39,847 nucleotides of DNA from a virus (Duplodnaviria > Heunggongvirae > Uroviricota > Caudoviricetes): IMG/VR virus record IMGVR_UViG_3300046519_000060, positions 128,001-167,847 of that record. One strand, written 5' to 3'. Every line of letters starts with the position of its first letter. The stretch's first letter is position 1. A program made the translations under genes and the position numbers. Of the stretch, positions 319 through 26,261 are shown in pieces. A model generated the notes under the pieces. It saw nothing but the letters and a program-made list of their open reading frames with translations, was not told where the DNA came from and searched no databases.

Positions 319-642
319 ATGAAAATGACGACCGAACAGTACGAAGCCCTGAAAGCCGATGTCGATGCTGTTGCCCTGCACTGCCGACTGCTGCGCCGTG
401 GCGATACCTCACTGGCAGTCATGTGGGCCATCCTGCACGAAATCAACGCTCAACGGTCCTACTCGGATGAACACCCGCGCTGGAAGGTCCGTGAACGCTT
501 CCTGACCGCCACGCACGTTAACAAGAAGCACTGGCTGACCGACCTCTATGACGCGGGCCTGAACGATGTCCACATCAAGACGGCCCTCATGAAGATCGTG
601 ACCGAGTGGGGACGAATTCCCAAAGTTGAAAATAGTCATTGA
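319..642 (+). CDS. hypothetical protein
   Basis: ATG at 319 after AGGAGA; the longer TTG start lies inside the promoter. Confidence 0.75.
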   Translation: MKMTTEQYEALKADVDAVALHCRLLRRGDTSLAVMWAILHEINAQRSYSDEHPRWKVRERFLTATHVNKKHWLTDLYDAGLNDVHIKTALMKIVTEWGRIPKVENSH

Positions 643-700: not shown

Positions 701-1315
701 ATGGCAAAGATCAACTACCAAGCAAACGACGAACGCGGCGAACGCTTCCTGCTGATCCGTCTGGACAACGACCGTGGTAGCGATTACGCCCACATCAAGG
801 TCCAAGTCGTGCGTGCGGCAGTCCGTGACAGTGTGGACCCCGAGACGGGTCGCAAGCAGTACAACGATGGCGAGAACGCAACGGGCTATCGCAACTGCAA
901 GTGGTCCTCGGACAAGAACAACGCGCTGTACGTGGAAGATTTGTTCATCAATTCGCAAATCACCAAGCGCAGCATCAGCGGTGAATTCCCGGAAGAATTC
1001 AAGCCCTATGGCGTCGAACTGCGCTTCAAGCCGTTTGTTGTCGATGCCAGTAGCGCCCGCAAGATGGCCGACACGTTCGACAAGATCGGCAAGAAGCTGT
1101 CGCAGTATGACGAGGAATTCGGCTACTGCAACGACGATCTTCCGGCCTACATTCTGCGCGTCGCCAAGGCACTGAACATCAAGAAGTTCCTGACCGTGCC
1201 GAAGGAAGGTTCGCAGTGGTTGGATCGTGGCGAATACCGCGTCTGGAACGCCCCGGATGTCTCGTACATCGTGAGTTCCATGCTGGACGAAGTGAAGCCC
1301 GCCAAAGCCGAATGA
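701..1315 (+). CDS. hypothetical protein (204 aa)
   Basis: GGAG RBS, typical codon usage. Confidence 0.8.
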   Translation: MAKINYQANDERGERFLLIRLDNDRGSDYAHIKVQVVRAAVRDSVDPETGRKQYNDGENATGYRNCKWSSDKNNALYVEDLFINSQITKRSISGEFPEEFKPYGVELRFKPFVVDASSARKMADTFDKIGKKLSQYDEEFGYCNDDLPAYILRVAKALNIKKFLTVPKEGSQWLDRGEYRVWNAPDVSYIVSSMLDEVKPAKAE

Positions 1316-3367: not shown

Positions 3368-3376
3368 GAATTCAAT

Positions 3377-3502
3377 GGGACTGGTGTCTGAGTGGTTTAA
3401 GGTGTGGGTCATTAGCGCGTCTGCGTGAGGACTCTAGTCGGTATGAATACCTTGGCTGTATTCCTCTATCGACCGCAGGTTCGAATCCTGCCCGGTCCCC
3501 CA
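3377..3502 (+). ncRNA. tRNA-His-like RNA with 12-nt anticodon-loop insert and long variable arm
   Basis: G-1:C73, GGACTGG/CCGGTCC acceptor, canonical T arm, CCA; loop AT[TAGCGCGTCTGC]GTG AG. Confidence 0.65.
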
Positions 3503-3508
3503 TTACAT

Positions 3509-3597
3509 GGTCGCTGCATGGTTGCTTCATGATGATAATGGTTCACTCACAGGCGTCGTGAACTTCATCTACCGGTTCGATTCCGGTGCGATCACCA
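3509..3597 (+). ncRNA. tRNA-like RNA with no canonical anticodon arm
   Basis: GGTCGC/GCGATC acceptor, ACCGG-TTCGATT-CCGGT T arm, ACCA; GTTCAC/GTGAAC stem with 11-nt loop. Confidence 0.6.
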
Positions 3598-4033: not shown

Positions 4034-4041
4034 TATAAATA
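4034..4041 (+). promoter_or_regulatory. T4-type late promoter
   Basis: Exact TATAAATA upstream of the second tRNA sub-cluster. Confidence 0.75.
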
Positions 4042-4058
4042 GAGAACCGAAATGAATT

Positions 4059-4132
4059 CGCGGGTTCCGATAGTCGGACGCAGGGTTCATATCCCTGTCT
4101 GGGAGAAGGAGCGTTACCTTCGCCCGCTACCA
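4059..4132 (+). tRNA. initiator-type tRNA-fMet(CAT), atypical D and T loops
   Basis: C1xT72 mismatch, GGG/CCC anticodon stem, TT CAT AT loop, ACCA; 3-nt D loop; T loop AGCGTTA. Confidence 0.75.
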
Positions 4133-4137
4133 AACAA

Positions 4138-4267
4138 GTCTTGATGATCCGTTCAAGTGGGCCTTGTACTCCCACTTTCCTTTACACAGTCTCTAGGGAT
4201 AATGGCAGGGAACGTAGGTCAAGACGGTACACGCTGCGACTCAGGTAGCGTCAAAACACTGAGGCCA
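4138..4267 (+). ncRNA. multibranched RNA followed by an H-type pseudoknot ending in G-CCA
   Basis: GTCTTGAT/GTCAAGAC, CGTTC/GAACG, AAGTGGG/CCCACTT; S1 ACGCTGC/GTAGCGT, S2 CTCAG/CTGAG, GCCA. Confidence 0.55.
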
Positions 4268-4269
4268 AT

Positions 4270-4348
4270 TCCGCGAAACCCGAGCAAGGTGCATGGGCTT
4301 GACTGTTAATCAATGGCTAGGTGAGTTCGATTCTCACACGCGGAGCCA
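4270..4348 (+). tRNA. tRNA-Asn(GTT)
   Basis: TCCGCG/CGCGGA acceptor, TTGA-CT GTT AA-TCAA, TTCGATT, G73, CCA. Confidence 0.9.
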
Positions 4349-4684: not shown

Positions 4685-5626
4685 ATGCAGAATAGTAAGC
4701 TTTATGTTATAGCGGTAATGTCGAACCCTGTCCGATATGAAAGCCGCGAGCGGTTGTTCCATGAATTCGCATCACGCATGGAAGCAACGCCAAACGTACA
4801 GTTGATTCGAGTGGAACATGCCCTTGGTCGTCGTCCCCATGCCGTAACCGATCCGAAGTGTCCTTGGCACGTTCAGTTGCGTGGCGGTTCGGAGTACGAA
4901 CTATGGATCAAAGAAGGCATGATTAACGCGGGTTTGAAGCATCTGTACAAGATGGACCCGAATTGGGAATACGTCGCATGGGTCGATGCAGACATCAGCT
5001 TCGATAATCCTGATTGGGCGCTGGAAACGATCCATGCCTTGCAGCACTACAGCGTGGTTCAACCGTGGTCGATGTCCTACGACATTGGTCCCGACAACAA
5101 GCAAGTGATTCATGCAGCATCTTCGTTTGGTCACGACTACGCAACGGGTACGAAGCGTCGTCCGTGGGCGATCTACGAAGAATCGTATCATCCGGGCTAT
5201 GCTTGGGCGGCAACGCGCGAAGCAATCGATGGTCTGGGCGGTAAGCTGATCGAGTGGTGTCCTCTGGGCGCTGCTGACCATCACATGGCCCATGCCTTCA
5301 CCGGCAACATCTGGGCTGCTGTACCTGACTTTGTTGGTTCATCATATCGTCGTCGTGCATCGCAGTTTCAATTGCTGTGTGACCGGTATGTAAAGCATAA
5401 CTTCGGTTACGTCGATGGCGCGATCCGTCACTACTGGCATGGTCCGAAGCGCAAGCGTTACTACATCGAGCGCAACGACATCCTGAAACGCAATCGCTTT
5501 GATCCTGATTGGGATTTGGGCGTTGATAGAAATGGTCTGCCCTTCCTCACGGATGGCAAGCCGCAATTCCGCGATGAAATCCGCCTGTACTTCCGTGCTC
5601 GCGACGAAGATTCGATGGAACTGTAA
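4685..5626 (+). CDS. GT-A fold glycosyltransferase-like protein
   Basis: WIKEGMINAG, YVAWVDADISF (DxD), HPGYAWA, GAADH and HYWHG motifs. Confidence 0.6.
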   Translation: MQNSKLYVIAVMSNPVRYESRERLFHEFASRMEATPNVQLIRVEHALGRRPHAVTDPKCPWHVQLRGGSEYELWIKEGMINAGLKHLYKMDPNWEYVAWVDADISFDNPDWALETIHALQHYSVVQPWSMSYDIGPDNKQVIHAASSFGHDYATGTKRRPWAIYEESYHPGYAWAATREAIDGLGGKLIEWCPLGAADHHMAHAFTGNIWAAVPDFVGSSYRRRASQFQLLCDRYVKHNFGYVDGAIRHYWHGPKRKRYYIERNDILKRNRFDPDWDLGVDRNGLPFLTDGKPQFRDEIRLYFRARDEDSMEL

Positions 5627-5683: not shown

Positions 5684-5831
5684 CGGGGAACCTGTTCGTG
5701 TGTGAACGAACGCCCGCGTGGAGCGGGGAGTAAGGTAATACTGGATGGCGAGTATGGTTCGTGGGGAGTTACAACACGTTGAAAGTCATTCTAATAACTT
5801 CGCGTTAGGTTCGATTCCTAGTCCCCGACCA
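5684..5831 (+). ncRNA. tRNA-Pro(TGG)-like RNA with about 75-nt expanded variable region
   Basis: CGGGGA/TCCCCG-A-CCA acceptor, TAGG-TTCGATT-CCTA T arm, CCCG-CG TGG AG-CGGG arm. Confidence 0.6.
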
Positions 5832-6034: not shown

Positions 6035-6337
6035 ATGGAAAATCAACATCGCGTCATCAAAGGCTATGAATTGAGCGCAGAGGAAATCGCGCTGATGAAC
6101 GAAGTCAAAGAAGAAGGCCAACGTCTGGCCGATCTTTTGAAGAAGGTCGAAGATCATATCAACAAGCAGTATATGGACCAGTACGACATTCTGGATGGTG
6201 AAGTCTGGGATACGACCGAAGAACTGGATCGTCTGAATGCGGCAGAACCGTATCGCTGGCTTCAACATGCAGTGGATGAATACAAGACCGCGACGATGAA
6301 GTTGGTCCGCGCAGTAGCACAACCGACGACCTTCTGA
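6035..6337 (+). CDS. acb2: Acb2-like anti-CBASS cyclic-nucleotide sponge
   Basis: MENQHRVIKGYELSAEEIALMNEVKE...AEPYRWL...MKLVRAVAQPTTF closely matches the recalled Pseudomonas phage Acb2 pattern. Confidence 0.85.
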   Translation: MENQHRVIKGYELSAEEIALMNEVKEEGQRLADLLKKVEDHINKQYMDQYDILDGEVWDTTEELDRLNAAEPYRWLQHAVDEYKTATMKLVRAVAQPTTF

Positions 6338-26036: not shown

Positions 26037-26176
26037 GTGGACGTGGCGGAATTGGTATACGCGCCTTGTTAGTAGGTATGTCGGCTGGAACCCATCGACA
26101 GGGGAAATTGTCGCGACGTACTGAGGACAGGGTTCCCGATAAAAAGGGAGTGTGGGTTCAACTCCCATCGTCCACA
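26037..26176 (+). ncRNA. tRNA-Leu(GAG)-like RNA with 52-nt structured insert in the anticodon loop
   Basis: GTGGACG/CGTCCAC-A, Leu-type D arm GCGGAATTGGTATACGC, long variable arm, TTCAACT T loop; CCA not encoded. Confidence 0.7.
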
Positions 26177-26261
26177 CAACCGGGTAGAGCGAGCATTTAC
26201 GCCAGTTATCGGGAACATGCGACCCCGACTACCCGAACTTAAACCTGTAGAAAACTAAACA

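Follow-up and report, generated by a model that had tools for sequence, protein, structure and literature searches.

A near-invariant 34-nt module, predicted to form a pseudoknot at the 3' end of a probable small phage RNA, and its possible role as a decoy for a host protein

What is the RNA that lies between two tRNA-like genes of a T4-like phage and ends in a predicted pseudoknot followed by G-CCA? The question comes from the window analysed here, a stretch of 39,847 nucleotides that forms the last 39.8 kb of a 167,847-base (about 168-kb) virus record, a dsDNA T4-like genome with T4-like replication genes. The putative RNA would be 130 nt long; it occupies positions 4138-4267 of the plus strand, and is located within a tRNA region, where it starts 5 nt past the CCA of a tRNA-Met-like gene and ends 2 nt ahead of a tRNA-Asn-like gene (Table 1). 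No open reading frame of at least 60 amino acids spans it. An earlier note on this DNA had proposed that the element is an independent dsDNA-phage version of the tRNA-like structures (TLSs) of plant viruses.

Table 1. Features at and around the element (positions in the window; rows, aligned copies of the module)
Feature	Position	Strand	Remarks
Candidate T4-type late promoter TATAAATA	4034..4041	+	Ahead of the tRNA-Met / element / tRNA-Asn / Trp / Phe run
tRNA-Met(CAT)-like gene, atypical, CCA end	4059..4132	+	ARAGORN, relaxed threshold only; cloverleaf fold z −2.3
5' domain, lineage-specific: P1 (4138-4145/4218-4225) around a three-way junction	4138..4225	+	Minimum free energy fold = centroid
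S1 (4232-4237 with 4245-4250, 6 bp, one G-U), L1 (4238-4239), S2 5' strand (4240-4244)	4232..4250	+	Invariant in 7/7 aligned copies
L3, A-rich (U-Y-AAAACA)	4251..4258	+	Sole variable core position 4252: C in 5/7, T in 2/7 rows
S2 3' strand, 5 bp with 4240-4244	4259..4263	+	5/5 pairs Watson-Crick, invariant in 7/7 rows, no compensatory change
Tail: invariant GC, then CA (CCA end), A/T-rich trailer	4264..4269	+	GCCA in 5/7 rows; GCTA in L001; GCCG in L050
tRNA-Asn(GTT)-like gene	4270..4348	+	ARAGORN, relaxed threshold only; blastn to annotated phage tRNA-Asn

The motif ahead of this run, that of T4 late promoters, has three copies in the genome: one here, one before the major-capsid homologue and one before tRNA-Thr. 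It is not enriched, since about 4.2 copies would be expected. A sigma-factor-like gene scored under the Pfam cut-off (E 4.4e-5). The tRNA-Met-like gene has a non-canonical T loop and a short D arm, and is identical in the related record L001.

Other structured RNAs were recorded on the plus strand of the window. A 125-nt tRNA-like RNA (3378-3502) has an acceptor stem, T arm and CCA, with two extra hairpins replacing the anticodon and variable region; strains X2 and X3 have no clean unit there (joint 3375 to 3509). Next to it is an 88-nt tRNA-like RNA (3510-3597) with a T arm and CCA, a D arm that is reduced and, in the middle, a long hairpin; neither ARAGORN at default settings nor the Rfam tRNA model called it. 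An RNA of about 148 nt (5684-5831) combines a 6-bp acceptor-like closing stem, a T arm, CCA and several internal hairpins, and has no Rfam match. Far downstream, an isolated tRNA-like gene with a long insertion was found at 26037-26177 (Rfam tRNA 40 bits; fold z −3.5; ARAGORN intron 46 nt). Among the proteins, that encoded at 4685-5626 (+; 313 aa) has no Pfam or PHROG match and 597 homologues, two of the 120 listed being annotated as PF00535 glycosyltransferase. Inside the tRNA region, 1.8 kb downstream of the element, 6035-6337 (+) encodes a 100-aa Acb2/Tad1-family protein (PDB 8h2j, E 8e-16; Pfam PF24729), which by these matches is likely an anti-CBASS sponge.

We examined whether the proposed fold agrees with the letters. 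The earlier note had drawn S1 as ACGCTGC (4231-4237) with GTAGCGT (4245-4251), and these strands are indeed at that place, with one G-U pair. The 2-nt L1, S2 (CTCAG with CTGAG), an L3 at 4252-4258 and the G-CCA at 4264-4267 were confirmed at their coordinates as well. Nested folding found S1 and recovered the multibranch 5' domain with the closing stem that had been described, with no excess stability (z −1.2; 27 of 200 shuffles were as good). Across the 7/7 aligned copies, S1 pairs had probabilities of 0.56-1.0 in nested folds, and the 3' strand of S2 was taken by nested alternatives in L002 and L003/L044 (unpaired probability 0.09-0.98). Rough energies, which depend on the penalty values assumed, were −9.1 kcal/mol for the knot, or −12.4 if its stems stack coaxially, and −8.4 for the S1 hairpin by itself, which places the knot about 0.7 to 4 kcal/mol lower.

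A pseudoknot descriptor (S1 of at least 6 bp, S2 of at least 5 bp) was then applied to both strands of the 168-kb genome. It fitted 9 places on the plus strand and 8 on the minus strand, and NCCA followed only at this element. Among 3000 dinucleotide shuffles of a 135-nt stretch, 8 fitted, 2 of them with NCCA. Because 17 places in the genome fit, the knot by itself is not rare. What lifts the element above chance is conservation, as 33 of the 34 core positions are invariant in 7 aligned copies.

The conserved unit is this 34-nt core (4232-4265), which is smaller than the 130-nt RNA. Pattern scans of IMG/VR found the full module in 7 viral records, making five lineages with the window. Scan rows in which the pairing was absent were dropped (4 of 11, 8 of 13, 5 of 12, 1 of 8 and 24 of 31), and the 24 loop-only matches of the last set keep at most 2/4 inner S1 and 3/5 S2 pairs. 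The alignment consists of the window, L001, L050, L003, L044, L002 and L004; L005 was omitted as identical to L004 there. The first lineage is the window's T4-like phage with L001. The second is another T4-like phage, L050, with a capsid 45% identical (its genome G005 is a 12-kb fragment). The remaining lineages are a Pakpunavirus-like pair, L003 and L044, with a terminase 38% identical to that of Pseudomonas phages; L002, from a siphovirus-like 56-kb phage with a tmRNA; and the lambdoid-like records L004 and L005. Each record searched has one copy. A metagenome scan gave two matches that were taken as L004/L005 and not counted, and contigs of three DNA runs, perhaps including the source run of this DNA, held close strains only. 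In L051, positions 701-727 (+) keep S2, L1 and most of L3 with S1 pairing absent (15.8 bits, E 0.07); this is possibly a decayed copy or a chance match, and was not counted.

The contrast with the rest of these genomes is large. Proteins common to the lineages are 27-56% identical (G003 compared over 40 of 64 kb, G005 as its 12-kb fragment), and 11 pairs of tRNAs with the same anticodon are 58-74% identical, their longest exact runs spanning 7-11 nt. In 7/7 rows each of the 11 core pairs is preserved, none of them through compensation. The outer A4231-U4251 pair survives in only 2/7 rows, those of the window and its close relative, which leaves a conserved stack of 6 + 5 = 11 bp and assigns U4251 to L3. 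Scans with patterns that freed either stem or both (IMG/VR) yielded no covarying copy, nor did the 24 loop-only matches. Since no copy shows a compensatory change, the H-type pseudoknot is a prediction and is not proven. By analogy with CptI, as presented in the sections consulted of PMC4627078, L3 is predicted to pack in the minor groove of S1 as a triplex.

The module has a sharp 5' edge, similarity being lost within 0-2 nt of the S1 start in all five lineages. On the 3' side, the five positions after the invariant GC are C in 5/5, A in 4/5, A in 5/5, T in 4/5 and T in 4/5 lineages, and in L001 and strain X2 identity to the window ends at 4265. Upstream of the knot each lineage has its own 5' domain, about 28 to 95 nt long: the window has a three-way junction, L002 one long irregular hairpin, L003 three hairpins, and L004 and L050 a single small hairpin each. 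A hairpin stands 0-9 nt from S1 in each, different in every lineage, and blastn detected no homology between the 5' domains of different lineages. Within the first lineage, L001, X2 and X3 share T4145C and A4147T relative to the window; the former turns a U-G into a C-G pair in the closing stem, and the latter allows one more pair in the L001 fold.

In most lineages the module neighbours a tRNA-type gene. Two tRNAs flank it in the window, L001 and L050; it comes directly 3' of tRNA-Gly in L003/L044 and about 290 nt after the tmRNA in L002. In L004 it follows an HTH gene: a −10-like motif stands before a unit of hairpin plus knot, 64 nt in all, and behind this unit is a GC-rich hairpin with a run of U; these were recognized by eye, and a consensus scan called neither promoter nor terminator. 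In all five lineages the module has the same sense as its neighbours, and the G-U pair favours this strand. It is upstream of terminase genes in G002, G003 and G004. The tmRNA of L002 (1784-2150, minus strand), also upstream of terminase genes, is of the permuted, two-piece betaproteobacterial type with the tag ANDAQFLVAANA. The array of L050 has two more non-canonical tRNA-like RNAs, at 1000-1137 and 461-556 (+): one of about 137 nt with a T arm and a CCG end, and one that ARAGORN was unable to assign. Intein-like domains were seen in two proteins, the G004 terminase and a portal/MuF fusion encoded by G002 (L068 1406-3994, L069 6068-8818). An NAD-salvage pair of G005, made up of NMN adenylyltransferase-NUDIX and NAMPT, has homologues in the genome to which the window belongs (G000:C1:19504-21988, L066 2850-5396).

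Host clues point to Betaproteobacteria in 4/5 lineages. They consist of the beta_tmRNA match in L002; 48 homologues of which 3 carry an organism name, Polaromonas and Xenophilus being among these names; best capsid matches to Ralstonia and Delftia phages; and a best NrdA match to a Limnohabitans phage, with Vibrio phages just 5 points behind. No host clue came from G003 or from the DNA polymerase of the window.

We looked for known relatives of the element. Rfam 15 gave no match over it at gathering thresholds or at E ≤ 10, with riboswitch, ribozyme and TLS models included. Searches by blastn against cultured phages, plasmids and E. coli genomes returned chance-level pieces or nothing. The model R1 found nothing in the cultured phages RSP15, PhiW-14, DC31 and T4 (T4 at E ≤ 1, its tRNA region at E ≤ 10), and a structure-only scan showed no knot of this kind on the strand of RSP15 that carries the tRNAs, nor any next to a CCA end in DC31. 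Among 185,579 prokaryote genomes, an exact 19-nt core never occurred with its 3' half, in a search by exact matching that diverged prophage copies may escape. Three 19-nt matches in prokaryotes were rejected; they lack L3 and the 3' strand of S2 and fall within open reading frames or at their margins. No complementary target of at least 12 nt was present in five records (G003 in part). A description of the motif or module was not found in the literature consulted, and neither six of the nine supplementary files of PMC10690425 nor the four supplements consulted of PMC12283969 (tenpIN) contained a match. We regard it as a real, uncatalogued and unusually invariant phage RNA module.

How far, then, does the likeness to plant-virus TLSs go? 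TLS-Val of tymoviruses and TLS-His of tobamoviruses, in the sections consulted of PMC7749636 and PMC8127992, have a 3' H-type pseudoknot with a last 5-bp stem followed by N-CCA, a short loop crossing it and an 11-12-bp stack. The element, too, has a predicted 3' H-type pseudoknot followed by G-CCA, with the potential to pair in 7/7 rows but no covariation; the features that give TLSs the tRNA L-shape find no support. The 12 bp of TLS-Val start from a conserved T-loop and are made up of T-stem plus pseudoknot (4/3/5 or 3/3/6; PMC7749636), the 11 bp of TLS-His come with a near-perfect T-loop (PMC8127992), and both carry an anticodon arm (PMC7749636, PMC8127992). In contrast, the stack of the element is 6/5, without a T arm or T-loop. 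The equation of 12 stackable bp with an acceptor plus T arm therefore fails: the conserved 11 bp are all pseudoknot, with an open far end and no T-loop cap. We found no T arm with a T-loop stacked on the knot (a 7-nt loop is present in L003/L044 only), no conserved anticodon arm with a D-loop analogue (L004 and L050 hold one small hairpin), no Rfam TLS match, and a dsDNA T4-like genome instead of the 3' end of a (+)ssRNA genome. ARAGORN at −ps100 or −ps90 made no call confined to 4138-4267, and no cloverleaf with an acceptor stem and T arm was found. The unlike 5' domains, with no common anticodon arm, and a CCA encoded in 5/7 copies only speak against a tymovirus-style TLS. The stems are also invariant where those of TLSs covary, and the element is a small RNA of a dsDNA phage, not the end of an RNA genome. 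As the earlier note expected, tRNA finders do miss the element, neither ARAGORN at default nor Rfam giving a call; the S2 strands are unchanged in homologues (5/5 pairs in 7/7 rows, no covariation). The element would share with TLSs a pseudoknot placed before N-CCA, but is not a member of their class.

Even so, the knot could work as an acceptor-arm mimic, its 11-12 bp and G-CCA being charged by a synthetase, or read as a minihelix by a CCA-adding enzyme or EF-Tu. Exactly N-CCA follows S2, as in TLSs and as at no other of the 17 descriptor fits; CCA stands in 5/7 rows, with the other two one base off, and the module is placed in tRNA arrays. The phages have no CCA-adding enzyme (0/5; control 10/14), so a mimic would need host CCA repair, which is possible, as for T4 tRNAs. 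However, the missing T arm, T-loop and common anticodon arm and the unkept 12th pair argue against it. The element of G005 (L050) has CCG though its 8/8 ARAGORN tRNAs encode CCA, conservation extends past the CCA (next A in 5/5 lineages), and the invariance of S1 and both loops is left unexplained. We consider this reading unlikely, though it heads the rivals. Next in our estimate, and also improbable, is a portable 3'-end cap or processing signal, in which the knot would block 3'-5' exonucleases and stabilise a grafted 5' cargo RNA that holds the function. In every lineage a structured domain of variable make-up (about 28 to 95 nt) precedes the knot, and the tail after S2 is short, which suits a cap. 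Protection should nevertheless allow compensatory changes, yet the 11/11 core pairs never vary, and the cargo in L004 and L050 is one small hairpin.

An almost complete lack of variation in a compact A-minor pseudoknot is what aptamers and ribozyme cores typically show. A small-molecule aptamer acting as an RNA sponge that binds a nucleotide signal, or else a small ribozyme aiding array processing, would match this invariance, the lack of a linked expression platform in 4/5 lineages and the nearby Acb2. It is at odds with the lack of any Rfam riboswitch or ribozyme match at E ≤ 10 and with a distance to the upstream tRNA that varies (about 0-11 nt), and we rank it third and doubtful. The element presumably lacks HDV-like, pistol and hammerhead cores, as judged by eye against consensus sequences, and families outside Rfam such as theta ribozymes were compared with it in the same way. 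A cis element on the nascent transcript, for example for antitermination or pausing, that engages host RNA polymerase upstream of late genes would explain the position before terminase genes in G002, G003 and G004, in G004 with a terminator-like hairpin right behind it; if the target is a conserved host polymerase, invariance would follow too. Both T4-like lineages, however, place the module as a tRNA-spaced unit in arrays far from terminase, the tail is CCA-like, and in G004 an HTH regulator gene is already present close upstream, so that this role seems still less probable. We give least credence to a DNA site or a recently transferred neutral block with an incidental pseudoknot. The absence of covariation, the overlapping inverted repeats and the break of strain identity exactly at 4265 are in its favour; the loss of similarity 0-2 nt from the S1 start in five lineages, the fixed strand, the single copy and the fact that none of 185,579 prokaryote genomes carries the 19-nt core exactly together with its 3' half are not.

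The reading that we prefer, with a probability of roughly 40%, is that a small phage RNA gene carries the near-invariant 34-nt 3' module as a sequence-specific decoy for a conserved host protein. The element would be transcribed late or from its own promoter. Host tRNA-processing nucleases may free an RNA with a short GCCA-type tail behind an interchangeable, merely stabilising 5' hairpin domain, and 5' processing of the tRNA-Asn-like gene would release the 3' end. The L3 adenosines and L1 may pack on the stems to make a rigid surface that is read base by base. The partner would be a betaproteobacterial factor, most likely a defence nuclease or toxin, or a tRNA-end surveillance enzyme, and the phage would gain by titrating it. 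A role in counter-defence is possible.

Several observations argue for such a decoy. Every base of the knot seems constrained, which suggests base-specific recognition by one conserved host partner, and the core stays 33/34 invariant against 27-56% identity in proteins and 58-74% in tRNAs. Variation is confined to the unpaired outer pair and one L3 base, the paired core bases never changing. The placement by tRNA, tmRNA or late genes on the strand of the neighbours in five lineages and the convergence of host clues on Betaproteobacteria in 4/5 of them are in line with it, and the Acb2 homologue 1.8 kb downstream lends weak support to a counter-defence neighbourhood. There is also a precedent in phage PhiTE, whose pseudo-ToxI mimics an antitoxin RNA, as the part consulted of PMC3475682 reports, and CptI and TenpI share the same plan. 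On the other side, invariance without compensatory change fits other roles too; the energy gain of the knot over S1 is roughly 0.7 to 4 kcal/mol, and nested alternatives cover the 3' strand of S2 in L002 and L003/L044. The promoter and terminator of L004 were not called by the consensus scan, Acb2 homologues occur in only 2/5 other records (G001 and, partial, G002), and with only five lineages recent transfer could add to the invariance.

Type III antitoxin RNAs (CptI, TenpI, ToxI), in the sections consulted, are similar to the predicted fold of the module in being 34-50-nt H-type pseudoknots with S1 longer than S2, a very short L1, a long A-rich loop and single-stranded ends. For CptI and TenpI, single loop changes abolish function in knots with a long S1, short L1 and A-rich loop, according to the parts consulted of PMC4627078 and PMC13682666. 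Unlike these antitoxins, the element is single copy, without tandem repeats, and no adjacent toxin gene was seen, its neighbours being tRNAs or terminase-region genes. We rejected an antitoxin assignment, since the element is single copy with no toxin beside it and has no tandem repeats upstream of a terminator and toxin gene; the analogy is to a decoy. Phage tRNA clusters also hold unexplained RNAs, T4 RNAC/RNAD (species 1 and 2), in the consulted sections of PMC3014915 and PMC12685909. These are non-tRNA RNAs of similar size (139 and 119 nt) in a T4-like tRNA cluster, but there is no sequence match and no comparable pseudoknot there, and the module crosses phage families. The gene 32 mRNA of T2/T4, in the accounts consulted, has a compact phage H-type pseudoknot of two stacked stems that binds protein; whereas that one is a cis operator before gene 32, the module has no fixed downstream gene.

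A bolder version of the decoy idea is itself unlikely, though we place it above each of the rivals. The element would be a pseudoknotted acceptor-end decoy, independent of plant-virus TLSs, whose G-CCA on a rigid 11-bp knot soaks up an enzyme or toxin of the host that either attacks the 3' ends of tRNAs or senses them. The 34-nt cassette would have been swapped among lytic and temperate phages of Betaproteobacteria, and would be the first phage counter-defence RNA to cross families. More generally, when a 34-nt module is more conserved than the adjoining tRNAs in lytic T4-like phages and temperate phages alike, the implication is a single, unchanging target in the host. The module is short enough for synthesis, probing and use as bait, which offers a direct route to the role of RNAs of the T4 RNAC/RNAD type. 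As a decoy, it would join a very short list of RNA-based counter-defences; were it charged, it would be a pseudoknotted tRNA mimic outside RNA viruses.
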